A stretch of 64,000 bases of DNA, from contig NC_087436.1 in assembly GCF_036321535.1 (NCBI RefSeq), positions 42,410,001 through 42,474,000 on the forward strand, in the 5' to 3' direction. The translations under genes were made by a program, and so were the position numbers. This DNA comes from Camelus dromedarius. Its lineage: Eukaryota. Under the pieces are notes generated by a model. That model was given only the letters and a program-made list of their open reading frames with translations, was not told the origin of the DNA and did not search any database. Below, one piece after another: positions 670 to 46,896 of the stretch. The first letter of the stretch is position 1; every line of letters begins with the position of its first letter.

Positions 670-1620
670 AGAACAAAAAACAAAAAGAAATTCTAGAGAT
701 CAAAAACATTGTAACAAAAATGAAGAATCCTTTGAGGGGCTTATTAATAGGCTGAACACAGCTGAGGAAAGAATTTCTGACCTTCAGGATAAGTCAGCAG
801 ACAATTCCAAAACAGAAAAGCAAAGAGAAAAAGGGCTGAAAAAAAAAATGGAACAGAACATCCAAGAACTGTGGAACAAATACAAAAGGTGTAACATATG
901 CATAATGGGAATACCAGAAGGAGAAGAAAGAGAAAAGAAATATTTGAAGCAATAATGGCTGAGAATTTCCCCAAATAGTCAGATACCAAATCACAGATCC
1001 AGGAAATTCAGAACACTAAGCAGGATAAATAGCAAACAAAAAAATAAACAAAAAATTGCAAGTAGACATATCATAGTCAAACTGCAGAGATCAAAGATAA
1101 AAAAATCTTGAAAGAGCCAGAGGGCAAAAACATATTCCCTAGAGGATCAAAGATAAATATTACATCCAACTTCTCCTCAGAAACCATGCAAACAAGAAGA
1201 GAGTGGAGTGAAATATTTAAAACGTTGAGAGAAAAACTCACTAACCTAGAATTCTGTATGCTGTGAAATATTCTTCAAAACTGAAGGTGAAATAAAGATC
1301 TTCTCAGACAAGCTAAAATTGAGAGAACTTGTTGCCAGTAAACCTCCCTTGCAAGAAATGTTAAAAGAAATTCTTCAGAGAGAAGGAAAGTAATGTAGGT
1401 CAAAAACTCGGAATTATGTAAAGAAAGAGCATTGCGGAAGTAATAAGTGAAGGTAAAATAAAAACTTATTTTTCTTATTGATTCAACACCTAAAAGTTTG
1501 TCTCAAATATTAATAGCAACAATGTATTTGATTATGTATGCTTATATGTGGCTTATGTGTGCTTATGAATAAGTGAAACAAATGACAGCAATGTCACAAG
1601 GGACTAGAGAGAGGAATTAT
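670..1620 (+). mobile_element. Old L1 (L1MC/L1MD-type) ORF1 remnant plus start of inter-ORF region
   Basis: Degenerate ORF1 motifs (gctgaggaaagaatttctgacctt; gagaatttccccaaa; tcagaaaccatgcaaacaagaagagagtggagtgaaatatttaaa; aacctagaattctgtatg), A-rich sense strand, many stops. Confidence 0.85.
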
Positions 1621-1684
1621 AATAATTACTGTTTTTCAAATTGAGATACAATTGACATTAATTTGAGAAATTAGAATTATTCCT

Positions 1685-2055
1685 ATTTTTTAACTGAGGT
1701 ATAACTGACATTAATTTCAGGTATACAACACAATGATTTGACATTTGTATACACTGCAAAATGATCACCCAATAAGTCTGGTTAACATCAATCATCACAT
1801 AGAGTTACAATTTTTTTTCTTGTGAGAGAAACCATTGAAAAAAATTTTTAGTTTTAAAAAATAAGCACTGAAGAATTCACTGCATGTATAATTCTTGTTG
1901 TAATGAGAATTTTTAAAGCTACTCCCTTAGCAACCTGCAAATATACAATAAAGTATTATTACCTATAGTCATCATGCTGTACATTACATCATCCCTAGGA
2001 ATGGATGTTTGTACCTTTTGACCCCTTTCACCCATTTTGCCCACCTCCTACCACC
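1685..2055 (-). mobile_element. Antisense L1 3'UTR fragment (L1MA9/L1_Art-like) nested in the old L1 cluster
   Basis: ttttaactgaggtataactgacatt...tatacaacacaatgatttgacatttgtatacactgcaaaatgatcacc...cttagcaac...tatagtcatcatgctgtacattacatc is the reverse complement of a eutherian L1 3' end. Confidence 0.8.
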
Positions 2056-3810
2056 AAATCAATTTAAAGAAAAGAAGAGCAACAGAGAAAAAATTAACAA
2101 AAGTAGAATAAATTCTTTCATTTTTAAACTCTTAATTGGTCTAAAACATAACTGTTTATAGCAATAACAGTAGTAGTGTATTAGGTGACTATAGCATATG
2201 GACAAGTAAAATCAATGACAACATTGTCATAAGGGATGAGATGAAGTAATTCTGTATTGCTCTGCACCACATGGAAGTGGTTCCATGTTATTTAAAATTA
2301 GATTTAGGTTATATAAAAATACATATTTTAAACTCTAGGGCAACCACTAAATTTTTTAAAGTGAAGTGTAATTTGACACACTGAGAGGAGATAAAATTTA
2401 GTCATGTAAAAATGTTCAATTAAAACCAGAGAAGGAAGAAAAAGAAGGGGAAAGAGAAACAAATAATAAATGTCATGAGTAGAAAACAGTTACAAACATG
2501 ATAAATATTAGTTCAATTGTATCAATACTCAACTTTAAATGTGAAACAGCCTATATGTACATATTGGAATAGATTGTCAGTGTGGGTACAAAAATATCCA
2601 AATAAGTTTTCCACACTAATATCACTTTAAATATAAATGCTCATATAAGGTAAAATGAAATGTATGGGCTCAGACAGTCCATGCTAACACTAATCAAAAG
2701 AAAACTGAAGGGCTATATTAACTTCCAACAAAGCAAACTGCAGAATAAGGAAGATTTTTCAGGCATAAAGAGTGGGCATGGTATAATGGTAAAGGGGTGA
2801 TTCTCCAACAAAAAATAATGAACCTAATAATGTATTCACCAAACAAAAGAGCATCAAAATAAATAAGACAAAAATGGATGGAACTTACAGAAAAAACAGA
2901 CAAAGCCACTACTATAGTTGAAGACTTCATCAACCCTCTATCAGTTATTGATAGATAAAGTAGGCAAAAAAAAACCTAAAAATATAGATAATGTGAACAG
3001 TACTATAAATCAAATTGATCTAATTCACATTTATAGAACACTCCATCCAACAGTAGAATATATACATTCTTCTTAAACTCAAATGGTGTATTCACCAAGA
3101 TAGATTGCAGTATAGGTCATAAAATACATCAAAACAAATCTAAAAGAATAGAAACCATAAATAGTATATTATTAGAACAAGCTTAAATTAAGTTGGAAAT
3201 CAATTAAAAAAAAAAAAAGACAAACTTCCCAAATATTCAGAAAATAAACAGCTCTTTATATATAATCTATAGTTCAAAGAAGAAAGTTTATGAGAAAATT
3301 TTAAATACTTTAAACTAAAAGAAAATAAAAATATCCTCATCAAAATTTGTCAAAAATAGCAAAAGCAGTGCTTGGAGAGAAATTTATAGCTTAAACAAAT
3401 TTATTAGAAAAGAAAAAAGGATCTTAAATCAATAACTGAAGCTTCCAATTAGGAAACTGGAGAAAGAAAAGCAGAAATTAATGAAATTGAAAAAAAGACA
3501 ACAATATAGAAAATAACCAACAATAAAAAAATCTGGCTCTTCCAAGGACCCATAAAGTTTATAAAACTGTAGCCAATCTAACCAAGAAAAAAAGAAAATA
3601 TGTAATTTACCAATATCAGAAACAAAAGAGAGTTCATCACTACTTATTGTGGACATTAAAAGGATAATAAAGGAATGCTATGAGAAACTTCACACCTACA
3701 AATTAAGTAAAATGAACCAACTCCTTAGAAGACACAAAACTGTCAAAATTCACACAATAATTATGAGAGAAACTAAGTCAATAAATTAACAATTTCCCAA
3801 AAGTAAAGCA

Positions 3811-4200
3811 AAAAGAATCTAAAAGCACTGAACTCATAGAAACAGAGAGTTGAATGACAGTTGCCAGAGGCTAGTGAGGTGGGGGAAATGGGGAGATGTT
3901 GGTGAAATGGTATAACTTTTCAGCTATGCAGGATGAATAAGTTTTGGAGATAATGTATAGCATGGTGTCTGTAGTTAGTAATACTGTATTGTATACTTGA
4001 AAAAAATTTGTTGAGAGTCGATCTTACATGTTCTCACCACAAAAGAAAACTGGTAATGATATGAGGTGATAGATATGTTAATTAGCTTGACTGTGGTGAT
4101 ATTTCACAGTGTACGTTACATATATCAAAACATCAGGTTGAACAACTTAAATACATACAATTTTTATTTGTCAAATTATCCCCCAACGATCAATAAAATA
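3811..4200 (+). mobile_element. 5'-truncated L1 3'UTR (L1MA-type) nested in host ORF2, with ~10-bp TSD
   Basis: gaactcatagaaacagagagttgaatg...gttgccagaggc...aattagcttgactgtggtgat...caataaa tail; flanks aagtaaagca (3801-3810) and aaataaagca (4201-4210); host ORF2 resumes at 4211. Confidence 0.85.
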
Positions 4201-4754
4201 AAATAAAGCATATGGCTCAGATTGGTTTACTGTGAATTCTACACAACATTTAAAGAAGAAATAATAGAAATTCTCAGCAATCTCTTCTAGAAAATAAAAG
4301 CAGGGGACACTGATTAACTCATTCTAGGATGTCGGCATTACTATACAAAGTTCAGATCAAGATACTGCAAACAAACAAACAATGCCCCCCCCAAAAAAGC
4401 CAACAACAACAACAAAAAACCTTACAGACCACTCTCTCATAAAGATAAATTAAAAATCCCCAACACTTTATTAGCAAATTGAATCCAACAGTATAAAAAA
4501 TAATTATACATCATGTTTTAGTGGGATTTATTCCAGGTATGCAAGAGTGGTCCAATAGTTGAAAAATCAGTCAATATAATCCACCACATCAATTGCATTT
4601 AGAAGAAAAATCATATGATCATATTAATTGATGCAGAAAAATTATTTGGCAAAATCCAACATTCATTCATGATAAAAGTTCCTGATGTAGGAATTGTACA
4701 CAAAATATACAAAGACTCTTAAGCTCAATAAGAAACAAACAACTCAATTAAAAA

Positions 4755-5585
4755 CATCACTAATCATCAAAGAAATGCAAATCAAAACCACAATGAGATA
4801 ACATATCATACCTGTCTGAATGGCTACCTTCAAAAAGACAATAAATAATAAATGTTGGCAAGGATGTGGAGAAGAAGAAACTTTCATGCACTGCTGGTAG
4901 GAATGTAAGTTGGTACAGTCACTATGGAAAACAGTTAACAAAATTTAAAAATAGAACTACCATATGATCCAGCAATTCTACTCCTGGGTATATATCTAAA
5001 GAAAGTGAAAATGCTAATTTGAAAAGATGTATACACTCCAATATGAACAGAAGCATTCTTTACAATAGTCAAAATATGGAAGCAACCTAAGTGTTCATCA
5101 ACAGATGAATCAATAATGAAGCTGTGGTATATACACAATGGGATACTACACAGCCATAAAAAACGATGAAAATTTGCCATTTGCAGCTACGTGGATGACT
5201 TGGAGGGTGTTATGCTTAACAAAGTCAGACAGAGAAAGATAAATACTGTATGTTTTCACTGATATGTGGAACCTAAAAAATAAAATAAATGAATGAATAA
5301 AAAAAAAACAGAAGCAGACTTACAGATACAAGGAACAAATAGTGGTTCCCACTTGGGAGAGCGGTGGGGATAGGGGAAAGTTGGGGAAAAGAATTAAGAA
5401 GTACAAACTATTAGGTATAAAATAAACAACATATAAGGTTGTAACATATAGCACAGATAATATAGCCAATATTTTATAATAGCTTTAAATGGAATATAAT
5501 CTTTAAAAGTACTGAATCACTATATTGTACACCTGAAATTAATATAAAATTGTAAATCAACTATACTTCAATTTTAAAAATTAAA
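4755..5585 (+). mobile_element. 5'-truncated L1 (ORF2 C-terminus + 3'UTR, L1_Art/L1MA-like) nested in host L1
   Basis: catcactaatcatcaaagaaatgcaaatcaaaaccacaatgaga...ccatatgatccagcaattctactcctgggtat...tgtaaatcaactatacttcaatt; host motif caattaaaaa|tgggcaaaag is split around it. Confidence 0.85.
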
Positions 5586-7964
5586 TTTAAAAATGGGCAA
5601 AAGATCTGAACAGACACCTTATCAAAGAAAATATACAGATGGCAAATAAACATGTGGGAAAATGCTAAATAGCATTTGTCAATAGGGAAATGTACATTAC
5701 AGTAATACATCAGCTCTCATTTGAAACCTATTTAAATGGCTAAAAAATAGGAAATCTCATACACTGCTGGTGGGGATATAAAATGGCATGGTCACTTTGG
5801 AAGAGTTTGGCAGTTTTTTACAAAGCTAAATATACTCTTACCATATAATCCAGAAATCGCACTCCTAAGTATTTATCCAGCTGATTTGAAAACTTATGTC
5901 TATACAGAAACCTGTACAATGTTTCTATCAACTTTATTTCTAACTGCCAAAAACTGAAAGCAAACAAGATGTCCTTCAATAGGTTAATTGATAAACTACG
6001 ATATATCCACACAATAGAATCTTTTTCTGCAATAATAAGGAATGCACTATCAAGTCACAAAAAGACACATATGAACTTCAAGTGCCTTTGCTAAGTGTCA
6101 GACACTAGTCTGAAAATGCTACTAACTTTATGATTACATTTATATGACATTCTGGAAAAGACAAAACTACAGATCGCAACAGCAAACAGATCAGTGGTTG
6201 CCAGGGACTTGGGTTAGGGGTTAAGGTTGTTGAATAGGTAGAGCACAGAGGATTTTCTAGTGTGGTGAAATTATTCTATGTAATAATGTTATGGTGGCTA
6301 CATTACATTCTATATTTCTCAAAACTCAGTACTTTATAGCAGAATGAGTAAATCTTAATGTATGCAGATTTAAAAAAATCATTTACAGGGGATCTCAGCA
6401 TAGAACACTGTGACAAAAACATTTAACTGCATTATAAATGTATAAAACAGCCTTTCTGAAAGAGTGGGTAAAAAAGTTGCTGACCAAAGTAACTTTGAAA
6501 ATGAATGGAATCAGTAAGACTCAAAAAAGGCAAAAAGAACTTCACATGAGTATAAAACCCAAGTTGAAAAAGTTGTTTCCTACAGGGATATGGGCTAACA
6601 TGTGCACTGGAACTGAGTAATTAAGTAAATGGATGGTAGCTGATCAGAGCCCCAGGAATGGGAGATTTCGACAAGCTAGAGGAGAAGGCTTGAATGACCC
6701 ATGAGGTAACTAATGATAGTCAAAAACTACACGAACTCACTTCTTGGCTTAATGTAGACACAGATGGAGATATCAATATAAATGTTTATGGAGATATAAA
6801 TGTTTCTATTAGCTGAAAGTGTCTAGAAGCAATGACATTCTAGTAGCAACAAGCATACTAGTTCCCAGATTTTGGTTTCCAGTACCATTCTCTAATAAAA
6901 GAAACAAAAGCTTCTGGGATAAATGGTTTATTCTAAAACTGGGGCAGGAAATATATAAGATGAACTTAAAACATCTTAGTGCCAAAAAGTACTTTTAAAA
7001 AACCCCACAATGATGGGGGTATATCAAAAAGACACAGCAGTCAACTGAAAGAACTTCGAATGACCAAAGCTAAAACAATTTGAACAATAAGTAATTAACA
7101 GTATATTATAACCTAAATTATAAAATAAATATTCCTGAGTCCACACGGATATAAATAACTGATTAAATAAATAAATAATTGAGTGAGAAGAGACAAATCT
7201 CCTATGCAGTAGAATGCAAACAATTATTGTAGATGACTCCAACCTTAAGAAGATAGAGCATTAACTCCCCACTACTTAAGTATGGGCTGTTCATAATGAC
7301 TTTCTTCCTAAGAGTAGATATAGAAAGGCAGAGAAAAGAGTAACTTTACAGTCCAGAGACCTGAGAAACATTTCCTCAGGTCACCAAGGTCAACAGCAAC
7401 AGTGATACATCATGTAGATAGTATGTACTCTTGATATGATGTGATGAGAATGGCACTTTACCTCTGTGGTCTTTCTACCAAAAACCTAAAACCACACCCT
7501 AATGACAAGAGAAACATCAGACAAATCCCAATAGAGGGAACCATATTTAACCACTACTCCTCAAAACCATCAATGTCATAAAAAACAAGGAAATTCTGGG
7601 AATGTGTCACAGCCAAGAGGAGCCTAAGGAGATGCGATGACTAAATATGACATGGTATCCTAGATGGGATACTGGAATGTAAAAGGACCATGAGGTAAGC
7701 AATTAAGGACATCTAACTAATAATCTAACTAAAGTATGGACTTCAGTTAATAATTATGTACCAGCTGGTTCATCTGTTGCGACAAATGTACCATACTAAT
7801 ATGCAATGTTACTAACAAAGGTAATAGTAATCTCTTCACAACTTTTCTTTAAATACATATTCTAAAATAAAAAGTGTATTAACATTTTAAAATTTTTATA
7901 TAAAAATCTTAAATTTTAGATATATAGATCTATAAAAAACCTTATGTATCAACTACTAAAATTT

Positions 7965-8070: not shown

Positions 8071-11000
8071 GTTAACAGTGAGAAATTTAAGTTTCTTCAA
8101 AATTTAAAGTGTGAAACACATTAGAGCAATATGGAAGAAGTTTACAACATGCTTTATAACTCTTTTTAACGTAATACATTGATTTTAATTCTTCCTAAAG
8201 TATGTCTTGTTGAACACATTGGGCTCAAGGAAAGCCATAAGTGTTTAAAAATCATGACCTTAGTATTACATATAAGACAGAATGATTTATTCAGAGTAGC
8301 AAGACTTTAAGTCATGCTGCCCTCTGAGTCAGTCTGCTCCAGGGATAACTCTGTAAGATGAGCCTAACTTTCAGAAGAGACTTCTGATTAAAGAAAAGAC
8401 ATGAGTGCTCAAAAAAAATATCCTGTGCTTTTTATTTCTCTGCCTAATAGAGAAATAATTGTCTTAGGAAACTGTGACCCTGAGGAGTTACATGAATTCC
8501 TTGTGGTAATTTATTAAGTCAGTGGCATAATTCCTTGTTAGTTCATCTAGTTTACATTTCTAAATCCTATATGCCAGAATCCCACTAAAATTACTGAAAT
8601 GTAATTTGATGGCATCAAATAAAAGTGAATCCATTAGGACCCAAGAAATAACAGATCTTCATGGAGGGCCCACAGGAGAACAGGGAACATGCTTTGTCTT
8701 CTTTCAATACTTTTTTTCCCTCAGTATCTACTCTGACTTCTTCCTTTAAAAATTGAAAAGTTTAGTTTCCAGAAGCAAAAGTAATGAAATGACATGATAC
8801 CCTTCCAGCCCTACAGAAATATTAAATCTATTTTGTTAGGTTAGCCAGTAGGGAAAGCATTCAGTATTGCTCAATTATTCTCATCCATCTGTTCAATACA
8901 GTGAAGTGACCTTCCTAGTCCTTCTCTCCATGAAAAGAAACAATGTAGAGAAAAATTCAGTAGGTGTCACAAAGATAAATAATAAGGGAAGTAGATTATT
9001 ATTAAACCTCATGAATAGTCCTTAAAAATGTTTCTATATTTTGAATCTAAATACGATCGAGTACTGTGGGGCAAACAACAGTTACAAAACAAGAACAAAA
9101 ATGTTATTTTTAAGCCTTAAACGAGGAGCTCAGCTTATAGGGCTGCTTCAGCTTCTGTTCTTCTATTTACTGTGTTATGATACAGACTCTATAGGACTTA
9201 CATCTGGTGAAAAAGGCTTTAAAAAAAAGAAACTCTGAGGTCCATTATGTTCACTTCTTTGGTGATAAAACTATATTTCTAGGTAACTTAAGTGAACAGT
9301 AATTTTAACACTTCTTTAAAAAAATAAAAATTAAGAAATTAAACTTCAGTATTCTAAACCTTCAATATTTTTTCTGTATCTTTATGAAGTCCATGAAATA
9401 CTGCCTTTTTCTTTTTTTTCCCCATGAGTGGTCTTTCTATTAACCTTAGTCACTGATCTGCTTTCTTTCTTCCAGTCTCCTAAAAGTCTTGATTATTATG
9501 GCACCTGTTAAGTTATTTCACTAACACCAAACCAATTCTATGCCTTCACCTCCCTTCTCAATTTAATCTAGCAACTCCTTTCTCTGTAGACTTCATTCTT
9601 TTTTCATACCAGGACCTTTCCCCTCTTCTTTAATTCTACAAATCATTCTTTAACTTCGTGAAGTTCATATTACATATTCAGTTTAAGGGCTTAAAATAGC
9701 ACACATAATACTAAATTCCATTTTCCCCCGTTCAACTTAACCTTTTAGGCCCCGTGGGCCAATTCCAGTAAAGACTGTGAAAATCTGGCTCATTTATTAC
9801 ATTTTTGTGAGTGAATAAAAGGTTTAAACGAACTGAAACCATACTAGAAAGGAAAAGCCCTAAAAATGACATGCTTTGCTTCCTCCATATTACACTGATG
9901 GGCTGATTGACAATGCTGAACACTCTTGCTAGGTAATAAAATTAAATGGATACAGCACACGGTGAGGCTGGTCAAGAAAGATTGATGGCTATATTAAGTT
10001 GAAGTTTTCTCTTTCCTTCAAAAAGCCAAAGTAAATTAACAACTGAAAACACAAAGCAGCCTTTCTTTCTTCCTCCCTAAAGTAAAGTTTCCAAAAACTA
10101 GAACACGGTTGCCTAGCTCATGATTATTTAAAGCCAAAATCATCCATATATTATGCAATGACGTGTATGTGTAACATCATGATATGATACAACAGATTTA
10201 GGTAAAATAAAACCTCAACAAAATCTTCTTGTGATGCAATACCAAAATAATCCATTAAGGAAAGAATTCAAATATAAAGTTAACCACTTTCACCTAGTAA
10301 CGTATTTGAAAAACTCATTTTGGTAAAATATATAACATTTCTACGTAATAGGTGAATTTCTCTTTGAGAATTTTTGCATACCTATTTTTTTTTTTACTTT
10401 GTATGCATCTGTATCTTTCCAAATTTCTTACTCATATTGCCTAAAGCACCTCAGCCTTGATTCTACATTAACAGTTATAATATTCAGTTTAATGTGTTAT
10501 ATTGACAATTATGTAGATATATATATATATTTACCCATTTAAACATCTTTTCTGGATATTTTGAAACATTTTCATAAATTTGTAACCAAAATCCAAAGAA
10601 ATATTATATATTTTATAAGTATTAATAAAATTATTACTTCATACCAGACCATCAAATGATGCCTTTTGTGCAGCTCTGGGAAATCTAAGTGACTTCTGTA
10701 CAATAATAATTTTCATTTACATTTAAGGAATAATAATAATACCATTTTGAATAGTAACAGGAAAGTTACAGTTTATAATTCAGAATATTTAAGAAATATT
10801 TTGTTACACTGAACACATTTTTATTTGACTAAAGATAATAGATATTTAATTATACACATTTACTATAATATATACCATAAATACTGTAATAGTTATGTAT
10901 TTCAGTATGTTATATAATTGATACTCTATATTATATATTTTTTAAAATTTAAAAGATAAAAGAAAGTAAAATGAATAATAATAAATACAGACCACACCAA

Positions 11001-11749
11001 CCATGAGAATCACTTGTAACTTTAGGCTATTTTTTCCAGTTATTTATCTATGCAGAGGGTATTTTTCTGAATATAATTTAAATAAGTCTATACACATATA
11101 CACAGCTGTATGTCATGTTTTTATATAATACTTATATTACTTGTTTTTATGATTTTCTTAAACATACATTTTAGTGGTAGTGTCATACTTAACACCTATA
11201 AAAATTCATAATGAATGCATGAATCAAGAGGTGTTTACTAAGGCTGATAGGCTGGCAAGTTTTCCATCTTTTACAAATCTAGTTCTTTATTTTAATTTGA
11301 TTTCCTTCTGACTTTTAAAGATATTTAGCCCTCTGATTATCTAAAGTAAAATTCTAACTTTACAGATTTTTAATTTTGAACTTATTCATAAGATACCTAT
11401 CCATTTATCAGATTAAAAAATCATCTTGGCAGAAATGAAATTTTTTTTATATTTTTTTATTGAGTAATAGTTATTTTACAATGTTGTGCCAAATTCTAGT
11501 GTAGAGCACAATTTTTCAGTCATACGTGAACATGTATATATTCATTGTCACATTTTTTTCGCTATGAGCTACCACAAGATCTTGTATATTTTCCCCTGTG
11601 CTATAGAGTATAATCTTGTTTATCTGTCCTACATTTTAAAATCCCAGTCTGTCCCTTCCCACCCCCTGCCTCCTTGGCAACCACAAGTTTGTATTCTGTC
11701 TATGAGACTGTTTCTGTTTTGTATTTATGTTTTGTTTGTTTGTTTGTTT

Positions 11750-12118
11750 TTAGATTCCTCATATAAGCGATCTCATATGGTATTTTTCTTTCTCTTTTTG
11801 GCTTACTTCACTTAGAATGACATTCCCCAAGAACATCCATGTTGTTGCAAATGGCGTTATGTTCTTGGGTTTTGTGGCTGAATAGTATTCCATCATATAA
11901 ATATACCACCACTTCTTTATTCAGTCATCTGTTGATGGACATCTAGGCTGCTTCCATGTCTTGGCTATTGTAAATAGTGCTGCTATGAACATTGGGGTGC
12001 AGGTGTCATTTTGAAGTAGGGCTCCTTCTGGATTTATGCCCAGGAGCAGGATTCCTGGGTCATATGGTAAGTCTACTCCTAGTCTTTTGAGGAATCTCCA
12101 TACTGTTTTCCACAGTAG
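11750..12118 (-). pseudogene. L1 ORF2p C-terminal segment (123 codons downstream of the CCHC knuckle), two in-frame TGA
   Basis: Manual translation LLWKTVWRFLKRLGVDLPYDPGILLLGINPE...DTCTPMFIAALFTIAKTWKQPRCPSTDD*IKKWWYIYMMEYYSA...VILSEVSQKEKEKYHMRSLI*GI matches the mammalian ORF2p C-terminus; no indels. Confidence 0.9.
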
Positions 12119-12261
12119 CTTTCCTTGCTTCCCTCTCCCACTCTTAATGATTTAGATGTCTTCTTTTACAATTTTGTGTTTATTCTTTTTGTAATTCATG
12201 GCAGTTATCTCCTTTCCAGTTATGAGTTTCTCATTTTTGTAGCATCCTGCTTCTTTTCTAT

Positions 12262-13164
12262 TTAGAGTAGACCTGTCAATATTTCTTTTAGCATGGGTTT
12301 AGTGTTGCTAAACTCTTTTAGTTTTGCTTGCCTGTGAAGTTCTTTCTCTCTCCTTCTATTCTGAAGGATAGCCTTGCTGGATAGAGCATCCTAGGCTGCA
12401 TCTTTTCTTCATTCAGGACTTTGGATATATCTTGCCACTCCCTTCTGGCCTGTAGTGTTTGTGTAGAGAAATCAGCTGAGAGCCTTGTGGGGGTTCCCTT
12501 GTAACTCACTCTTTGTTTTTCTCTTGCTGCCTTTAGGATCATTTCTTTATCCTTGACTCTGGCCATTTTGATTATGATGTGTCTTGGTGTGAGTCTGTCT
12601 GGGTTCTTCCTGTTTGGGACCCTCTGAGCCTCCTGTACTTGGATATCTGATTCTTTCTTTAGGTTTGGGAAGTTTTCAGTCATGATTTCTTCAAATACCT
12701 TTTCAGTCCCCTTTGTTCTTTCTTCCCCTTCTGGAACCACTATTATGCGTAGATTGGCATGCTTTATATTATCTCATAGGTCCCTTATATTGTTTTCATT
12801 TTTTTTTAATTTGTTTTTCTCTCAGCTGTTCTGATTGGGTGCTTTCTGTTGTCCTGTCTTCTAGGTCACTTATTCGTTCCTCTGCATTATCTAGCCTGCT
12901 TTGCACAGCCTTTAGGTGAGCTCTCATCTCAGCAAATGAGTTTACTAATTCTACTTGGTTCTTCTTTATAGCTTCTATTTCATTTTTCACATATTTTATA
13001 TCTCTAAACACTGTTTCTTTAAGTTCCTTCAGTACTTTGATCACTCCTCTTTTGAAATTTTGATCTAGTAAGCCATCAATGTCTATTTCCTTGATCAAGC
13101 TTTCAGGGGATTTCTCTTGCTCTTTTAATTGGGAGTGGTTCCTCTGCTTCTTCATATTGCTCAT
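12262..13164 (-). pseudogene. L1 ORF1p (~300 aa; coiled coil, RRM, CTD), disrupted by two frameshifts and one nonsense codon
   Basis: ORFs 12796-13164 (…SRLDNAEERISDLED…) and 12318-12740 (VPEGEE…ENFPNL…QEAQRVP…TPRHIIIK…ILKAAREK…LSADFS…ARREW…LYPARLSF); extra A in A9 run 12799-12807, TGA at 12776-12774, missing A near 12323; restored end KQKLKEFSNTKPMLKEILTGLL*. Confidence 0.95.
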
Positions 13165-14493
13165 ATCTCTATCAGTTATCTAGTTCTCCTGGAGATGGTG
13201 TGCTCTTAATGATTTTATCAAGAGATCTTTGTGTCTTTGCCCTGTTTTGCAAACTCAGCTTGCTGTTTCTAGAGGCCCTCTCTTCGCGACCTCGCCTGTG
13301 CTGCTCCCAGTAGCTGTCAGATAGCAGATTGCGCCCTCTCCTAACACTGGGTCAGGAGCTGAGCTCTTACCTGGTGGGCGGGCGGGTCACTCCCCCTCCC
13401 CCTCCCGATACCACAGTCAGATGCTGTGCTTGGGGGAAGGCAGATGGGTGGATCGTGCCCCCTCCCAGCACCATGGTCAAGTGCTGCGTTCCTGCCAGGA
13501 AGGGGGGGGTGGCAGCCCACCCTCTCCCAGGGCCAGTGGCTCTGCTGCTCTGTGCAGCTGCCCGCTCTGCCTCGGGTCAATGCTCCGAAGGTGGGCTCAG
13601 GGAAGACTGCGGAACGGCCCTTCCCCTGCTCCATGCCAAATCTCAGCTCCTTGTTTGTCTTGGTGGGGCAAGTTCTCTGAGGTGCCAGGGCAGAAAAATC
13701 CTATCTGCCTTGGGCTGTAAACAAGTCTCAGTCCTGCCTAGGAGGTTGAGGAGCCCCCCGGTGCAGATTCAGGGCTCGGCCGGCCCCCACCTGGGCGCTG
13801 CACACAGGAGGACATGGCAGCTGTGGTTAGGCCCTGCCTCTCTTTTCACGAGAAGTGCCAGTAATGGCGGCACAGGTCTGAGGAGACAAAGGCTACAGCA
13901 CCCCTCCCACCAGGGCACACCAGTTGTGTTGCTTTGCTTTTTTCGCAATTTATGGGGGACAGAGGTTGTTCTGCTTCATATCCCCTCCCAGCCATGGCGT
14001 GCAGCACCCTGCAGTCCCCCGGGGCTGCCTCAGTGCAGCCGCCCCAGTCCTCTGCCCGGCTTGGGCAGACCATAATGGCCCCAGCTGCTGGCTCGCACCT
14101 TGGGCTGGGTGTTGCAGGGACCCTTTGTGCCCATTTTACTCAGTTCTGTTGGTCAAGGGGTTCTCGGGGCAGATCTGAGCCTCAGAGGCTCCCCTTCCGC
14201 CCTGCTGGCCTCTCCGTTGGAGGAGGGAGACCCAGCGAACGAGCACCAGTACTCCTTTGCCGCTCCCTCCTCACAGGATCGGTCCGGCACTGTTTTGCTT
14301 TTTCTTCTTTCTTTTTTCCTTTTCTCCTACCAGATTTTTGGCATCTTTGCCTTTCGAAGAGGGTGATGTTCTGTCAGAGTTCGGCAGGTGCTCTGGTTGG
14401 CTGAGTAGGTCCATAGATGTGAGTTTTGGTGTATTTGTGGTAGAGGGTGAGCTACAAGCATCCTTCTACTCCGCCATCTTGCTTCTCTCCCTC
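13165..14493 (-). promoter_or_regulatory. L1 5'UTR internal promoter, GC/CpG-rich, with YY1 site
   Basis: Only strongly GC-rich kilobase of the window; caagatggcgg (plus strand ccgccatcttg, 14471-14481) is the canonical YY1 motif about 13 nt from the L1 5' end. Confidence 0.85.
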
Positions 14494-15204
14494 GAAATTT
14501 CTTTTAATGCCCTGGGTGCACTGAAGGGTTGGTGAAGCAAACAGAATCATGCATACGGATCATGACATTCAACATGAAATGACTGGAAGACCCTCAGGTA
14601 ACATAACTGTGCAGTTTGGGGTCACATGTTACATAACTTGAGTTCCTGACACCAGGCACTTGAGGTAAAAGTGACAATTATATAGTCACATAACATTTTA
14701 ATCATCAAATACAATTCCAAAAGTAAGTTGAACTTCATGACCAAGTAAACAATGTGATGTGGTTAAGGAGAAGGGTGAGTTAATTCAGAAAACTCTCCAG
14801 ATCCATCTTGAACTTGAATGAAAGGAGAGGAATGAGATACGTTAGTTTCAGTATATAGACCTGTTTAGATAGACTAATTTGTGGGCCTTCAGTGTCAAAT
14901 GTTCTTTGTGGACTCATAAATTGAGTCATGCTTAATTTTGTCCAAGAAACATTTCCTACCTTATTTAGAAATAGGGCAATATTAGTTAGCACTTATAAAG
15001 TCTCACAGAACCAAGGATGATGCCAACACATTCTTCTATCAATTCACACTTGAATTTAATATTTAGTTCCAATGTTTGCTTATAAATGTCTTATTTACAT
15101 TAGATACTTACAGTGCTGTTTTTCTTGTTTTCAAAGATTTATTGCAAAGAGGTTAAGAAGGCAAACAATATACAACTGTTTAAACAAAAAATCTTTGCCA
15201 AGCC

Positions 15205-16006
15205 AAAACTGACAAACCTCTGGCCAGGCTCACCAAGAAGAAAAGAGAGAACACAAATAAACAAAATAAGGAAGGAAAATGGAGAAATTATAACCAATAC
15301 CACAGAAATACAAAAAACCGTAAGAGAATACTGTGAACAACTATATGGAAACAAATTGGACAACCTAGAAGAAATGGACAAGTTTCTGGAAACATACAGT
15401 CCACCAAGACTGAAACAAGAAGAAACAGACCACTTGAACAGACTGATCACTAGAAATGAAATAGAATCAGCAATAAAAAAAAAAAAAACTCCCTATAAAC
15501 AAAAGTCCAGAACCAGATGGCCCCACTGGGGAATTCTACCAAACATACAAAGAAGAACTCATACTGATCCTTCTCAAACTCTTCCAAAAGACTGAAAATG
15601 AGAGAGCATTCCCATACTCATTCTATGAAGCCACCATTACCCTGATACCAAAACCAGACAGAGACAATATCAAAAAAGAAAATGACAGGCCAATATAATT
15701 GATGAACATAGATGCAAAAATCCTCAACAAAATATTAGCAAATAGAACCTAACAGCACATAATAAAAATCATACACCATGATCAAGTTGGATTCATACCA
15801 GGGACACAAGGATGGTTCAACATACACAAATCAGTGTGATACACCACATCAACAAAGGAAAGGCCAAAAATCATGTGATCATCTCAATTAATGCAGAAAA
15901 AGCATGCGATAAAATTCAACACCCATTTATGATAAAAACTCTTACCAAAGTGAGTATAGAGGGAACATATCTCAACATAATAAAAGCTATTTATGACAAA
16001 CCCACA
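15205..16006 (+). mobile_element. Young L1 ORF2 internal fragment (linker + N-terminal RT), no 3' end, no polyA, no TSD seen
   Basis: TQINKIRKENGEIITNTTEIQKTVREYCEQLYGNKLDNLEEMDKFLETY (ORF 15113-15595) and [36 protein letters not shown]…[10 protein letters not shown] (ORF 15812-16018); stops abruptly at gacaaacccaca. Confidence 0.93.
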
Positions 16007-16613
16007 TTTCTAATTTAAGTCCACAACCTTAAATTTTTGTCAGAAACTAGAGGTTCCTGTTAGTCAATAGTTAAGCTGTACCAATGTTTTTGAAAATCAA
16101 TTAAATCTTCACAACCCACTTTTTTATTCCAGCTGCTACTTCCAAGGAAATATTTACATTAGAACATAGAAAACTATCACATAACGAAGAGTTCGTAAAG
16201 AATTGGGGACAATCTCCTACAAACCATAGTGTATAAGATGTGTTCTTTTTGTCTAAATCCAAGGGGAAGGTCTAAAATTCCCCCTATCTAAGAAGGATGA
16301 GGCATACATCAACAGTGCTAAGGAATGTATATATTTTTGTTTTGGCTCTAGTTTGCAGGTGTTAGTGGGGCATGTTTTCATAGGAAGAAAGTGTGTTTCC
16401 TGAGTTTTCAACATTTGTGGGAAAATGTGTGAAAGGACACAGAAACAAAAATACTACAGCAGGAGAATAACAGTCCAAGTGAGTTATTTTTCCCTTTATT
16501 AAAAAAATTGAAAACACTACTTTCTTACAAGTTAAATCTTGAACGAGACAGTCAAGAATACAGAGTTAGAAGACAGACATAGCTATGTTCAGGTGAAGAC
16601 CAGGACTGAAGTA

Positions 16614-17044: not shown

Positions 17045-18340
17045 CAGATCAGAAATTCTTTCTAGACCAAGGAGAGAGCCCAGGAAAAGGTCCATATATG
17101 TGGATACAGTGTAAAACAAAAGATATAGTGCAGGGAAAGGAGGGAATATTCAATAAATTGTGCTGAGAGTAGTAGTTAACCAGAAGAAGAAAGAAATTGA
17201 ACATTAATCTCACAACAGTATAATGATCAATTTTAGGTAGATTAAAGGCTTATAAAAGGCAAAACTTTAAACCTTTAGGAAGAAAATATAAGAAAAGAAT
17301 TCCTTTGTTGTTTACTCCACATAAGAATTTTTTTCCAAGGGAACACAAAAAGTACTGCCCATTAACATGTTAATAAATGTGCTTATATTAAAATGAAGAA
17401 CTTCCATTCAATAAAATATATCTTTCTTCCCACCACCCACACTTGTAAAAAGAAAAATTACAAACTACAAACCGGAGTCAGGTATTTGTTAATACGTATG
17501 ACTGGCCAAGGATTCATAAACCAGAATATATAAAGAAAATGTTCAAATAAGGTTTTTAAAAAGACAAAAAAAATCTAAAAAGAGAATGAGTAATAGAATA
17601 GCCATTTCACAGAAGAAAAAGCCCAGATGAATAATAAATATATAAAAATATATTCAACCTTAGTGATTAGGGAAATGTAAATTAAAACCAAAATGATTTA
17701 TGTGTACTAGACCAGAAAAAAATATTTTAACTATCCTGAGCTTTGGAAAATTTGTAGGTGAACAGGAACTCTTATGCACTGAGGTGCGAATGTAAAATGA
17801 TACAATCACTTTGGAAAACAATTTAAAATTATTTTTTAGTGAATATTCACATACACAAAGCCCATCAATTCAACTCCTCAATATATGCTCTAGAGAAATT
17901 AATGAAAATGTGTATCAAAAGACAAATGCAAAAAAAACTTAGTACCATTCACATCACTTATTTATCACTACTCATTATGGAAAAATATTGAAAGCAACAC
18001 CAGCATCCAAAAATAGGAGAACTGAGCATAAATTGTAATAGTTCACACAGCTGAATATCACACAGCAATGAAAAAAAGCCATATGGAGTAAAATGGATGG
18101 CTCTTAGAAACATACTTTTGAATGGGAAAAGTCATAAAAACAACATATATAGGATGATACTATTTTTACAAAGCTAAAACACAAGCAAAACTAAGTAATA
18201 TATTATTAAGAGATGCATACATGTGTGATGAAACAATTTTAACAAATATAAAGAAAGCAATAAACACAAACATAAACATACTGGTTATCTTCCAGGTGTG
18301 GTGGGGATATATAGGAGAATGAGACAGTGGAGAAGCCACT
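17045..18340 (+). mobile_element. Old L1ME-type ORF2 3' part and 3'UTR
   Basis: attcaataaattgtgctg; ttaggaagaaaatata; ccagaatatataaagaa; attagggaaatgtaaattaaaacca; tacaatcactttggaaaaca. Confidence 0.75.
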
Positions 18341-32999: not shown

Positions 33000-34050
33000 A
33001 ATGTATTCAAAGACTTTATTAAGCACCACCTATGCATCAGCCATTCTAATAGACACTAAGAACACACACAAACAAAATGGGCATGGTCTCGTCACTCAGG
33101 AGTTTTGGCTTAATTAAGACGCAGTAATTCTTTCCAAGATCTGAAGAAATAGACTTCATTAGACAAGTAAGCTGTGGGAGGCAGAGCATTCCCTATAGAG
33201 AAAAAAACATGTCCGAAGGCCACTTGGTGGGAAGGACTGTGGATGTTTAAGTCCAGCATGGCTAAAGACAGAGCACATAAGAGGATGGTGGAGACAGAGC
33301 TGGAGCAGTATGCATGGACAAAAACATACAGGGCATTTTAGGCAAAATTTTAATCACTGTTTTTATTTGAAAACTAATGGAAAGCCATTTAGTTATCATC
33401 AACGGAAAAGTGATATGCATTCTAAAATGATTGCAGCTATAATGACAGCAATTTGGATGGGGACAAAAGGAGATATGGGCAGATAAATTAGAAAGTTAAT
33501 TTAGTAGCTCAGGCAAGAAATAATGACAGCTTGGTGCTATATAGATTGAATTATATTCCTCCCAAATTTATATGTTGATACAGTAAAGCCCCCATGTGAC
33601 TATATTGAAAATAAAGCCCTGAAGGAGGTGACTAAGGTTAAATGAGGTCATAAGAGTGGATCTTTGATCCAGCAGAACCAGTGCCCTTATAAAAGTGGAA
33701 GAGATACAAATATCTATCTCCTTCTGCCATGCAAAGACACAGTGAGAAGGTGGCTGTCTGAGGGCCAGGAAGAGAGTGCCAAGGAAATCAAACTCTCTTG
33801 AAACCTTGCTATTGAACTTTTCAGCCTCCAAAACTGTGAGAAAATAAATTTCTGTTGTTTAAGACACTCAGTCTATGGTATTTAATTTTGGCAGCCCAAG
33901 CACACTAAAACACTTGGACTAGGGTGTTGGTAGTAGAGATGAAAAAGAGCATACTAATAGGACAGATGTATAGGAGGTAAATATCAACACAGCAGATGAT
34001 ATAGAAGTAAGAGGGGAATGTCAAGGATGAACTTTTGGTTTCTGATTTAT
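33000..34050 (-). mobile_element. L2 3' region interrupted by MLT1A
   Basis: tttattaagcaccacctatgcatcag…aggcagagcattcc…atggaaagccatt…caggcaagaaataatgacagcttgg|actagggtgttggtagtagagatg. Confidence 0.75.
33535..33912 (+). mobile_element. MLT1A/MLT1A0 solo LTR with perfect 5-bp TSD
   Basis: tgcta…aaatttatatgttga…aggttaaatgaggtcataag…cagcctccaaaactgtgagaaaataaatttctgttgtttaag…ctaaaaca; flanked by cttgg (33530-33534) and cttgg (33913-33917). Confidence 0.93.
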
Positions 34051-40237: not shown

Positions 40238-43200
40238 GTTTTTTTATTGTGATAAAAACCACATAACATAAAATATATCTCCCTAACCTTATTAACCATT
40301 TTAAATTAGAAGTAGTAGTATCTATTTTGTCCATTGTTGTGCAACAGGTCTCTAGAACTGTTTCATTTTATAAAACTGAAAATCTATGTCCACTCAACAA
40401 CAGTTCCACGTTTTCCTTTCCCCCAAGCCCCTGGCAACCACCATTTTACTTTCTATTTATAAGAGTTTGACTATTCTAAATACTTGATATAAATAGAGTT
40501 ATAAATATTAATCTAGTATTTGTCTTTTTATGACTGGCTTATTTTACTTAGTGTAATATCTGCAGTTTATTCATGTAGTCATATGTGGCAGTATTTCCTT
40601 TCTTCTTAAGACTAAATGATATCCTATTGTATCTAACATCTTTTCTTTATCCATTCATCTGCCTATGGATATTTAAGTTGTTTCCACACTTTGGCATCTA
40701 TTAATAATGTTGGAATAAACATGGGGGTGCTAATATTTCTTCAAGATCTTGATTTCAATTTTGGGGGGGATAATAATCCAGAAGTGGGATTGCTGGATCT
40801 TATGGTAGTTGTATTTGTAATTTTTTGAGGAAACTTCATACTGTTTTCCATAATGACTGCACTATTTTACATCCCCACAAACACTGCACAATGGTTCTGG
40901 CTTCTCCACATCCTCATCAACACTTGTTATTGTCTGTTTTTTAATAATGTCATCCTAACTGGTGTGAGGTGAAATCAAACTATGGTTTAGACTTTAATTT
41001 TCCTAATGATTAGTGATGTTGATTATCTTTACCTATGATTACTGAACATTTGTATTTCTTCTTTGGAGAAATGTTTATTCAAGTTCTTTGCCCATTTTTA
41101 AATGAAATTTTTGTTTGCTTGTTTTTGAGTTATGGAAGGTTCTTTATATATTCTGGATATAATCCCTTATCAGATATATGGTTTGCAAATACTTTCTCCC
41201 ACTCCAGAGGTTGCCTTTTCACCCTGCTGATTATTTTCTTTGCTGCACAGAATTTTTTAAGTTTTATGTGGCTCCATATGCCTGTTTTTGCTTTTGTTTC
41301 CTGTAGTTTTGGTGTCATATCCAAGAAATCACTGCTAAATTTAATATCATGAAGATTTCCCCTATGTTTTCTTCTAAGAGTTCTTTAGTTCAGGTCTCAT
41401 GTTTAAGTCTTTAATCAATTATAAGTTAATTGTTGCATATAATATAAGGTAAGAACTCAACTTCATTTTTTTACATGTGGATATCCAATTTTCCCATCAC
41501 TGTTTATGGAAGAGACTATCTTTTCTCCGTTGATAGTGTCAGCAATTTTCCAAAGATCATTTAACCATACACGTGAGAATTTACTTCTGGGTTCTGTATG
41601 TTGTTCCATTGGCCAATGTGTTTTCTTTATGCCAGTAGTATACTATTTTTCTTAGATTACCTTAAGAGTTTGTCAATTTTGCTGATTTTTTCAAGGAAAC
41701 AACTCTTAGGTTTATTGATTTTTTTCTATTTTCTTACAATTTCTATGCTGTTATTTATTATTTCATTCCTTCTGACATTGGGTTTAGTTAGCTCTTCATT
41801 TTCTAGTTGCCTGATGTGTAAAGTTTGGTTGTTTATTTAAGATCTTTCTTCTTTTTTAATGTATTTACCAGTATAAACTTCCTCTTAATACTTCTTTTGC
41901 GATATCCCCTAAGTTTTGATATGCTGTATTTTTATTTTCATTTGTCTTCAGATATTTTTTAATTTTCCTCATGATTCTTCTTTGACCCATTGGTTGTTCA
42001 AAAGTGTGTTGTTTAATTCTCATATATTTGTGAATTTTCCAATTTTACTTTGATATTGATTTCTAGTATTATTCACTGTGATTGGAAAGGATCACATGGT
42101 ATGATTTCAATATTCTTACATGTGTTGAGATTAGTTTTGTGACTTAACACACGATCCATCCTGGAAATTGTCCCACATATGCTTGAGAAGAATGTTTGTT
42201 CTGCTGTCTTTGTGTAGAGTGCTCTGTACATGTCTGTCAGGTCTAATTGGTCTATGGTGTTGTTCCAGTCCTCAAGTTGTTTCCTTGTTAATCTTCTGTC
42301 TGGTTGATCTATCCCTAATTGAAAGTGGAATATTGAAATCTCTTACTATTGTCATTTTACTATCTATTTCTCCTTTCAAGTCTGTCAGTGTTCGCTTCAT
42401 ATATTTGGGTACTCTGCTGTTAGATGCATATATAACAATTTATAATTGTTATATCTTCCTACTGTACTGATACTATCATTATATAGTATCTTTGCTATGA
42501 CAGTTTTTGACTTAAAATCTATTTTGTCTGATATAAGTATGGCCACTTCTGCTCTCTTTCGATTACTATTTGTATGAAGTATCTTTTTCCAGCCTTTCAC
42601 TTTCAGCCTGTTTTCATTCTTATATCTAAAGTGAGTCTCTTTTAAGCAGCATATAGCTGGACCTTGTTTTATTTTTAAATCCATTTAGCCACTGTCTTTT
42701 GATTGAGGAGTCTGATCTATTTACATTTAAAGTGATTACTGATAGCAAAGAACTTACTATTGCCATTTTGTTAATTGTCTTCTGTTTGTCTTACAGTTAT
42801 TTTGTACCTATTTTCCCCTCTTGCTACCTTTGTGTTTTATTGATTTTTCTGTAGTGGCGTGCTTTGATTCCTTTCTCATTTTCTTTTGTGCAAATTCTAT
42901 AGGTATTTTCTTTATATGGTTACCATGGGAATTAAATATTCTTTAGTTCTAGACTTTCTGTTTGGTTCTATTTTATAGCTTTTATCTCTTTGCTGATAAT
43001 TCTCATTTTGTGAATGTGTAATTACCCTGATTTGCTTAGTTGTCTATCCATGTTCCCTGTGGTATATTGAGCTTCTTTAAGAAAATTATATGCAATACTT
43101 GTCAGGTAATTCATATATCTCTGTTTCTGTAAGGTCAGTTTCTGAAAATTTACTTGGTTTCTTTGACTGGGCCATGTTTTTCTGCTTCTTCATGTGTCCT

Positions 43201-43780
43201 GTTATATTTTGTTGGATTTTGTGTTTGGAAAAACACCCATCTTTCCCAGTCTTTATGAACTGGCTTCATAGAGGAAAATACCTTCACCAGTCAGCCCAGC
43301 TAAAGATTCTGGGGGCCTCTCACACCCTTTGTGGACATGCACTGTCTCTGGGCTTGGGCATTTAGCTTCCAAACTGGAGAGTCTGGACAGTTTCTTTGTC
43401 AGGAGCTGGTCATCTCTTACTTCACCTGGTGTCTTTCTGTAGTACTGCAGGTTCTCTGGCACTACCACAAGCTACTCTTTTGTTCTCAATGGCCCCCATG
43501 CTTACAAAGCATGTCAGTTCCTCATTCCAGAGTCAGGTCAGAAACTAGATCCTTGGGCAACTCCCGGTAAAGTCCGAACATTGGACACTTGGTCTGCTTT
43601 TCTCTTTTTCTCCCATGGATAAGCTGCAAAGTGGTCTCCCCCCACCCCCACCCCACTCCCTGCTCCATCACAGCAGGCAGCTCACTTCTATCTGCAGTAT
43701 TATAAGTTCTCTGGTGCTGCCAAAGGCCACTAAGCTCTTTTGTACTTTCTTGTTCTCATCCAAAGTATGCCGGTACCAAG
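40238..43780 (-). mobile_element. L1MA/L1MB-type element with internal deletions (3'UTR, ORF2 C-terminus, EN domain, ORF1 N-terminal piece, 5'UTR-like part)
   Basis: T-tail at 40239; ORF 41130-41324 (DMTPKLQETKAK…IKLKKFCAAK…RVKRQPLEWEKVFANHISDKGL); ORF 42397-42684 EN (ICCLKETHF…RLKVKGWKKI…AEVAILISDKIDFK); RT core missing at ~41645, most of ORF1 missing at ~42935. Confidence 0.9.
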
Positions 43781-45194
43781 TCAATTCTTAGAGGCTGTTT
43801 TTGGTTCCTTCAGAGTTACTCTTTGTAACTCTGTCTAATATACTTACCTATGTATTTATTTATAAATTAGAATCCCTTTGAATTCCTGACACAGAAGAAA
43901 ATGAATTGCATTTATGCTTTGTTCTAATCATCTGTCACACAGTTCCAAATTTTCATTAGTCAATCATTTTACATTTTAATGTTCATAATACAATAGTTTG
44001 TTCCACAAACCACAATTTCTGTAAGTTTGGCCTTCATCCAAAATTTAAGAGTTATCAATGCCTTTTTCACTTCTTCATTTATATTGTGACTTCATCATTT
44101 TAGTTACTTATTTCGATGCAAGTCCTGATTAATTTTGCCATCAAGTATTGTATTTTTACATTCAATAATGATACAAGTGCTAAATGTCTTAAGTTCTTTT
44201 GTGTTTCATAACGTCTGTTGTCTATATTGGAATAATAGCTTGTTTAGTTATATAATTATTTGATTGCCATTTCTTTCCACTGTGTTTTCTAGACTAATCA
44301 CCCCATCTTCTAGCACTGAAGAAGTCTGGGGCCAGTCTGCTTTTCCCTTCATAACTGCCTCACCATTTTTTTGTATAAACTCTCTCCTTGAGGTGTGACA
44401 ATTTCATCAAGGTATTTCCAGGGATTAGTTTCTCTTTATCAGTTTTTCCTGGAACACAACTTGTCTTATTTCAAAAATGCTCCTTTTATAATACAGTTAA
44501 CTGTCTTATTGCTTTTTTTTTTTTTTTTTTTTGCTTTGCTTTGCTTTCTTTAGGGAAAAAAAAGCATAAATTGAATACATTTTGTCTATCTTTCATACAC
44601 ATCAATTCATCTGTAATCATTTTTATTTTCTATATTTAAATAATTTTAATGACAATTTACAAAATTCCTCCATTTCCTTAACAATTTTTCAGCAGATTTA
44701 ATTCTATTTTTTCTGCTTTTAAGATGACTTCTATTTTTGTGATGCCCTTACTGTAACTTTTATTATTTTCCAACATCTGGGAGATCATCTTTCACTCTCT
44801 CCTATTATCTGTTCTTTCATCTAGTCCATTCGTGTCTTCTTTGATTATTATCTCTTATTAGAAATCATTTTCAATTTTAAATATATGTTCTCATTAATCT
44901 TTCTTTTTATTTAATCTTTAGTTCATTTTCTTTTCTTCCTTTCATTTTGTAGTATCATATGTAACTCCTTGCTTATGCTTGAGCTCATTACTTAAGTAGT
45001 TATTTCATCTGGGCTAGTCATCTACTTAAGACTGTTTCAGGGCAAGGCCAGTAGAGGTAACTGGTCATTTGAAATAATTTTAATTTGAATATATCTGCCC
45101 CAGTTCACTTATTCTAATAAGTTTTGTTCTATATCCTTGGGATATGGCATTCATTGGGGGTGGGGGATGCTCTAAAGACATGCTACTATCTTCA

Positions 45195-45365
45195 GTTGGA
45201 ATCCTGGCACTCCACTTGTCAGCTATGTGATAGAAAGTCATTTAACTTTGCTGTGCCTCAGTATTCTGGTCCCTAAAATTGGGATAAGGATGACAATACC
45301 TGCTTTGTAGGGTGGTTGAGAAGCTTAAATGGGTGAGTAAATGTATAGTGTTTAAAATGGTGATT
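45195..45365 (+). mobile_element. MIR SINE
   Basis: gaatcctggcactccacttgtcagctatgtga…tttaactttgctgtgcctcagt…aaaattgggataa…tagggtggttgagaagcttaaatg. Confidence 0.8.
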
Positions 45366-46401
45366 TGCATTTTTTTTTTTTTTTGCCTAATTGATTTTGA
45401 TCTAGAAGACCATCTCCTCTCTTCACCATGTGGCTACTGATCCTTTTATATTCGTATTCTAATGATTTCATTAAAGTACTTTTAATTTTTAATTAATTTA
45501 TGTTCTTAATTGATAGAATATTTCTAATCTATTCCAGACTAGGTAGGATATAAGTAAAAAGGAATAAATAATTGAATTTTTTAAAAAGATCAAATTGTAA
45601 GCATGGGGTACATATATGGGATTGCTGAGTATTTTTTCTTCCCTTTTTTATATTAATTAATGTCCCATTTTACTATTAAAATTTGAGAGCAACCTAGCAT
45701 CACTGTATTTATTCCCCCAAAATAAGAAACTATTTTATTTTTCTCAGGAGACTCATGGGGGAAACAAGCTGTATCCCCACAATGTTTAACCAAAATGAGG
45801 CAGCTACAAGCAGGGCAGACCACCATCCCCCGCTCCTGACACGTGAGGTTGAATAAAGAGAGAGTGTATCACCCCAATGTCAACACCATGGAAATACAAC
45901 CATTATTATAAACAATAAAACCACCCACAAACAAAAGGTTGTCTAAAATATATGATCATAATTATTCTCCCTGCTATTTAAACATAGTGGATATGGTATC
46001 CATAATTGCAAAATGTAATTTTTATGCTTAGTATTATTTTTCATATTACTAATGTATAGGAATTATCAATCCATGAATAAATGCCAGATGAAATGTATAT
46101 ATGTAATTATCAATATAATTCATTTTATCAAATAAGCCAAATCCTGAATCTTCTACCTCCTAAAACCACTTTGCATTTATGGGTGTTTTAGGTTTCTACT
46201 ACTATATTATTTAATTCTTCATTTGATCTATTAGTCATATGTAGATTTTTTAATCTTTGTGAAATTTTCTTCTTGCTCACAGTCTAAAGCCTGTTGCTAT
46301 GACTTCTTCCTTATCCTTCCTTATTTGTTTAAATTAGTATGGTTGCATATTACTCTTATTTTCTCCTATGAATTATGAGTATTATTAAAAGGCACATTTT
46401 T

Positions 46402-46896
46402 CTCCCTTCCTCCAGCTTTACTGAATATAACTGACATACAACACTCTGTAAGTTTAAGGTGTATAACATGATGATCTGATATACAAATATTTTGTGAAAC
46501 TGTTACCACAGTAAGATTAGTTACGATTAGTTATCATCACACATAATTACCTTTGTGTGCTTGTGTGTGATAAAAACATTTAAGATCTCTTCTCTTAGCA
46601 ACTTTCAAGTATTCAATCTAGTATTGTTAACTATAGTCACCACACTGTACATTGGATCCTAACAACTTATTTATTTTACAACTGGAAGTTCATTACCCTT
46701 TGACCAACATCTTATTTCCCCCATCCCCAGCTCCAATCTACTCTATCTATGTTTTTTAGAGTCCACATATAAGTAACACCAAACAGTATCTTTGTCTGAC
46801 ATTTCCTTGGCATAACGCTCTTAAGTTTCATCCTGTTGTCACAAATGGCAGGATTCCCTTCTTTTTTATCATGAATATTCCATTGTATGTCTATTC
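46402..46896 (-). mobile_element. 5'-truncated L1 3' end (L1MA9/L1_Art-like) with 9-bp TSD
   Basis: agctttactgaatataactgacatacaaca…ctcttagcaactttcaagt…gttgtcacaaatggcaggatt; flanks cacattttt (46393-46401) and cacattttt (46897-46905) followed by aaaa. Confidence 0.85.

Follow-up and report, generated by a model that had tools for sequence, protein, structure and literature searches.

Bao and Jurka (2010) are said to have described HAL1 families with an ORF1 that was under selection in the master lineage. As far as the available text of three sources goes, HAL1s are ORF1-only derivatives of L1 that have no functional ORF2 and that arose several times independently in mammals (PMC5753468; PMC5786205; PMC13756887). 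According to the accessible part of PMC2241872, rat RNHAL1 is 98% identical to an active L1 over its 5' 2,600 bases and is present in about 7,500 copies. In the pig, HAL1_SSc (the Repbase name; L1A6 in PMC6501411) is described in the available portion of that paper as an element of about 3.0 kb (3,016 bp) made of a 5'UTR, an ORF1 of about 900 bp and part of the inter-ORF spacer. The camelid element described here resembles the human HAL1, rat RNHAL1 and the families of Bao and Jurka in being derived from L1 and in carrying ORF1 only, and differs from them in keeping 123 C-terminal codons of ORF2 together with the whole native 3'UTR, and in being decayed.

The element lies in a 64-kb stretch of dromedary DNA, the whole of which was analysed and is referred to below as the window. 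Positions 11437-14505 of its minus strand hold a 3.05-kb camelid L1 insertion with a complete 5' end, which runs from its first base at 14493 through the 5'UTR, ORF1, spacer, a joint, the ORF2 tail, the 3'UTR and a short A-tail to the target site duplication (TSD) (Table 1). This bears out the original prediction of an ORF1-only 'half-L1' with a full 5' end and a 5'UTR of ~1.3 kb. A YY1-like motif at 14481-14471 (minus strand), at the start of the 5'UTR, is taken by us to be a candidate site, and imperfect tandem units are found near 13380-13490. The two TSD copies (14505-14494 and 11448-11437) are identical at 11/12 positions, or at 12/13 when the preceding T is counted, whereas only 8 of 10,370 control 12-mers from the flanks reached 11/12 anywhere in a 41-nt interval at the 3' end. 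The TT immediately outside the 5' copy is what is expected of an L1 endonuclease site, and the target, predicted earlier as TTTT/AA, reads TT/AAAA on the minus strand. The 3'UTR matches the 3' end of an older L1 in the window at 71%.

Table 1. Features of the element (positions in the window)
Feature	Position	Strand	Remarks
TSD, 5' copy, 12 bp	14494..14505	-	TT precedes it, L1 endonuclease-type site
L1 5'UTR	13165..14493	-	1,329 nt, 58% GC, CpG o/e 0.33
ORF1, 300 codons plus stop	12262..13164	-	ATG 13164, stop 12262, 903 nt
Inter-ORF spacer, first 142 nt	12120..12261	-	final ~40 nt alignable by eye with intergenic regions of pig L1
Joint, spacer to ORF2 (probable deletion)	12119..12120	-	probable 1-nt (A) microhomology
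ORF2 tail, last 123 codons including stop	11750..12118	-	two nonsense codons
3'UTR	11449..11749	-	AATAAA at 11461-11456; A-tail short, interrupted
TSD, 3' copy	11437..11448	-	11/12 identical to 5' copy

ORF1 carries the three simple lesions that had been predicted. The frame shifts by +1 in an A-run near 12801-12810, meets a nonsense codon at 12776-12774 and shifts by -1 near 12320-12330. The second piece of ORF1 matches the Pfam families Transposase_22 (PF02994, E 1.8e-26) and Tnp_22_dsRBD (PF17490, E 3.3e-14); the weak coiled-coil matches of the first piece to IFT57, ACBP4_C, Bacillus_HBL and FPP fell below the cut-off and were put down to chance. The closest ORF1p is an intact protein of 300 aa (P0007), to which the two pieces are identical at 96/120 and 138/157 residues. 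A domesticated gene of the L1TD1 kind would be expected to have an open and conserved ORF1 frame, and the two frameshifts and the nonsense codon speak against this. Scans of DNA in non-animal collections confirmed no ORF1 locus.

Similarity to ORF2 starts at 12120/12119 and spans 123 codons to the stop, as foreseen by the original prediction, which had placed a clean jump at ~12119 after ~140 nt of inter-ORF sequence. The tail is 83-86% identical over 119-121 aa to five camel-type ORF2 tails, and its best named relatives are Camelus proteins. Camel ORF2 tails have the last Cys of the CCHC motif four codons before the place of the joint, and tblastn with five L1 proteins revealed no endonuclease (EN) or reverse transcriptase (RT) similarity between the TSDs. 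The joint thus removes the remaining spacer, EN, RT and the CCHC motif, in agreement with the absences noted earlier. With neither ORF1 nor ORF2 intact the element is not an autonomous L1; the autonomous camelid L1s (Repbase L1-2_Vpa and relatives) share the ORF2 tail at the identity given above and differ in the domains that are missing here. Judged from sequence, the camelid origin and the HAL1-like anatomy of the element hold. Three of the HAL1 features that we tested are present, namely an L1-type ORF1 over its full span with lesions, an ORF2 reduced to its last 123 codons that lacks EN and RT, and L1-type insertion marks (a complete 5' end, an A-tail and a TSD at TT/AAAA). Dispersed copies that share the joint are hinted at by one indirect second locus (see below), so that the element is a probable, not a proven, member of the HAL1s. 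The spacer also holds an ATG (12199) in good context, in frame with the ORF2 tail across the joint (window 12199-12152, minus strand); a stop interrupts this frame in the present copy.

The copy had also been called young, and this part of the original prediction is not supported by our analysis. Two codons of the ORF2 tail are nonsense, and 7 of the 59 tail positions compared do not have the majority residue. The 5'UTR has a CpG o/e of 0.33, ORF1 is broken in three places, interruptions mark the short A-tail, the TSD copies have a mismatch, and the element and the candidate second carrier of the joint discussed below lie ~10% apart. From general substitution rates we infer that the insertion may date back tens of millions of years, perhaps to before the split of camel and llama. 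The copy is inactive and has no current function.

The window contains other L1 remnants. On the plus strand, 746-5978 holds an older L1 in fragments, with pieces of ORF1, EN, RT and the 3' part, and another ORF2 tail occupies 5579-5978. Fragments of older L1 are also present on the minus strand (40639-46723), one short piece near 46453-46723 being inverted, and 17495-18168 (plus strand) is a very old 3' remnant of L1 ORF2. An isolated 0.8-kb piece of L1 ORF2 (linker and start of RT) at 15208-16006 (plus strand) lacks a 5' end, a 3' end, an A-tail and a visible TSD, and is possibly a repair-type capture; twin priming was considered as a link between it and the element and was rejected, the piece being outside the TSD. 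A pair of 94-nt repeats (33818-33911 and 62536-62629) is 79% identical.

In order to find further copies, nucleotide patterns were searched for. Within the window the joint pattern occurs in the element itself only. It gave 0 and 0 matches in the non-animal DNA collections, and a 22-mer of the spacer gave none in the prokaryote genomes, none in the viral ones and one unrelated match in metagenomes; these collections are uninformative about camelid copies. The plasmid collection gave no match. The loci with an ORF2 tail, 9 plus 1 non-camelid L1 contaminants, served only as controls of normal context. They (L002-L011) are contaminating mammalian L1 DNA in nine bacterial assembly records, where the contigs are short, and in one contig of the viral collection. 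Twenty of the 23 sequencing runs listed, under two organism labels, contain a share of 0.71-0.74 of the words of window positions 9500-16500, which fits a divergence of ~1% and a partial absence of the element alike.

Since the joint happens to be in frame, carriers could also be sought among proteins. Out of 23 Camelus-named proteins with an ORF2 tail, 2 start after the joint, 20 show the normal CCHC context and 1 differs. The exception is a dromedary gene model of 941 aa (KAB1270384.1; P0128), in which residues from an L1 5'UTR of the element's type, homologous to the 5'UTR described here, are followed by Arg-Lys and then by the ORF2 tail. When all GT-AG pairs in 11900-14500 with a spacing of 60 nt or more were considered, exactly one gave the P0128 peptide (donor 13254, acceptor 12123). 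This reading requires direct fusion of the spacer's last five bases to ORF2, giving Arg-Lys. The Arg-Lys needs a 7-base pattern that the element's joint matches in full. When the same donor was joined to normal ORF2 contexts, none of six gave the Arg-Lys peptide, these controls being the two older L1s of the window and those 4 of the 10 fetched loci whose sequence extends across the joint position, all older or non-camelid. Further on, P0128 repeats a peptide, and this too can be accounted for by a single GT-AG pair, here between two L1 tails, which supports P0128 being a spliced model over L1 DNA. Thus two residues of one predicted protein hint that P0128 is a second carrier of the joint.

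Against the element, P0128 aligns in four ungapped blocks that are 73-80% identical; two more blocks are poor without gaps (9/23, 39%, and 5/14, 36%), and small introns of the model or indels probably interrupt them. In simulations a protein identity of 80% corresponded to ~10% DNA divergence and one of 98% to ~1%, so that P0128 represents a different locus and not the orthologue. Asn at position 37 of the tail is found in the element and in P0128, and otherwise in 2 of 19 other 59-aa tails; within this 59-aa tail the two have no private substitutions in common. The joint is seen in 1 of 21 informative Camelus ORF2-tail proteins, a proportion to be read with the fact that normal tails, with their in-frame ATGs, are more readily annotated. 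Among the best 150 cluster representatives, the 149 further ones, nearly all of them non-camelid, showed by eye no spacer-like residues before the tail. A search with the junction peptide (near lengths) gave two matches, both in normal context, and tblastn of 242 proteins against the spacer gave nothing convincing. The idea of a family thus gains one indirect second locus. Separately, a RefSeq isoform of Bactrian camel GTF2F2 (XP_074234302.1; P0130) was seen to end in a whole L1 ORF2 C-terminal part, which is either an exonised L1 or an annotation artefact.

The joint itself recalls the SpIREs, which in the available text of PMC5860796 are L1 insertions with intact ends, a TSD and an internal gap ending at AG. 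Here too the deleted part would end in AG; CAG precedes the joint position in both older L1s of the window and in 2 of the 4 fetched loci that cover it, and camel proteins have a Gln codon there. However, SpIREs are described in that text as losing 5'UTR/ORF1 sequence and as dead ends, whereas our element keeps its promoter and ORF1, and a GT donor is unsupported. Spacers of pig L1 consensus sequences (PMC6501411 supplement) could be aligned by eye as far as the joint, the last 22 bases without a gap. By eye, none of the 8 pig matches shown has GT directly after the joint position, the pig serving as a proxy for the camelid parent. This suggests a deletion at a 1-nt microhomology rather than a splice. 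A joint not made by splicing would hardly be expected to arise twice at one and the same base, and two carriers would therefore imply common descent.

Taken together, we consider it likely that the element is a dead member of a camelid HAL1-type family, non-autonomous and moved in trans by L1. One L1 would have lost ~3.7 kb (an estimate from pig spacer and ORF2 lengths) by deletion or by a template jump at the 1-nt microhomology. The deleted master would have kept the internal promoter and made an ORF1p that coated its own RNA, and ORF2p of intact L1s would have reverse-transcribed this RNA in trans at its poly(A) tail. As proposed for rat HAL1 in the accessible part of PMC2241872, the master's own ORF1p may have made the RNA a good substrate. 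The copies, the element and the dromedary locus among them, would then have inserted and decayed neutrally, each to ~5% from their common ancestor. Both trans-mobilisation and a function of ORF1p are proposed here by analogy with published HAL1s.

It would also be conceivable, but improbable, that SpIRE-like insertions recurred without any master, by splicing of full-length L1 RNA from a donor in the spacer to a CAG acceptor late in ORF2. The joint does fall at the CAG (Gln codon) of normal ORF2, where the element reads AG as at an exon end; the carriers have no private substitutions in common; the Arg-Lys of P0128 could equally stem from a full-length L1 with a tiny exon in its spacer; and in human, spliced L1 insertions repeat at fixed sites, as the available text of PMC5860796 has it. 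Such splicing would however require GT after the joint in the parent spacer, where the pig homologues shown have other bases, and the acceptor has almost no pyrimidine tract; the donors of human SpIREs in that same text (PMC5860796) are in the 5'UTR. It is the pig spacer alignment that disfavours the spliced insertion which the original prediction had allowed for.

Internal deletions at short microhomologies are a familiar by-product of L1 insertion, and a one-off deletion of this kind, by a template jump in reverse transcription with the P0128 residues due to chance, would fit the 20 of 21 informative camel proteins that are normal and a second carrier known from protein alone. We hold it to be quite improbable, as the joint matches the 7-base pattern of P0128 completely while none of the six normal contexts yields it, and for a camelid ORF2 to do so about three specific changes, as inferred from the residues, would be required. 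No better are the chances of a full-length L1 deleted after its insertion, any spread of the joint then being due to segmental duplication or gene conversion and not to retrotransposition. Local rearrangement could be indicated by the isolated 0.8-kb ORF2 piece, 0.7 kb past the 5' end of the element and on the other strand, but this piece is outside the TSD, both ends and the TSD are intact, and the carriers are ~10% apart, close to the age of the L1 subfamily itself. The second locus likewise disfavours a post-insertion deletion unique to this locus, one of the outcomes that had been named as refuting the prediction.

The pig, also a cetartiodactyl, has a HAL1 of similar size but of different make-up. 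Pig HAL1_SSc has another type of 5'UTR and spacer, and its 3' third, as far as can be seen by eye in the part of the source available, is AT-rich, without an ORF2 coding tail and with only a short L1-like end; on these sequence comparisons the two appear to be of independent origin. No camelid HAL1 was found in the literature searched, although Repbase/Dfam and the supplements of PMC8605555 may already include the element. The term HAL1 has no occurrence in the available text of PMC8605555, a survey of Camelus transposable elements. Repbase has alpaca L1 entries, and L1-2_Vpa, which is given in the accessible part of PMC6726744, was the only one of our guessed entry names that we met in the literature. 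One Repbase camelid L1 consensus may already be the element.

The more far-reaching version, an uncatalogued and camelid-specific HAL1 family that began with a single precise deletion and was amplified to many copies, is in our view rather unlikely, yet it would make this family the main L1 parasite of its lineage. The annotated SINEs of the Camelus lineage are almost all ancient MIRs in the available table of PMC8605555. In this version the master, which unlike pig HAL1 kept the ORF2 C-terminus in frame with the spacer ATG, may have made a small second protein from that frame, or have needed this RNA segment for capture by ORF2p. The element reveals no new mechanism. If confirmed, it would be one more case of an ORF1-only L1 parasite that arose independently, here with the breakpoint resolved to the base and the parent family in the same genome. 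It would allow a direct test of whether ORF1 kept in cis lets such elements spread, by comparing selection on the master's ORF1 with the decay of the ORF2 tail that was kept. Camelid repeat annotation, in which copies of this kind are taken for fragmented L1 and find their way into gene models, would be corrected as well.
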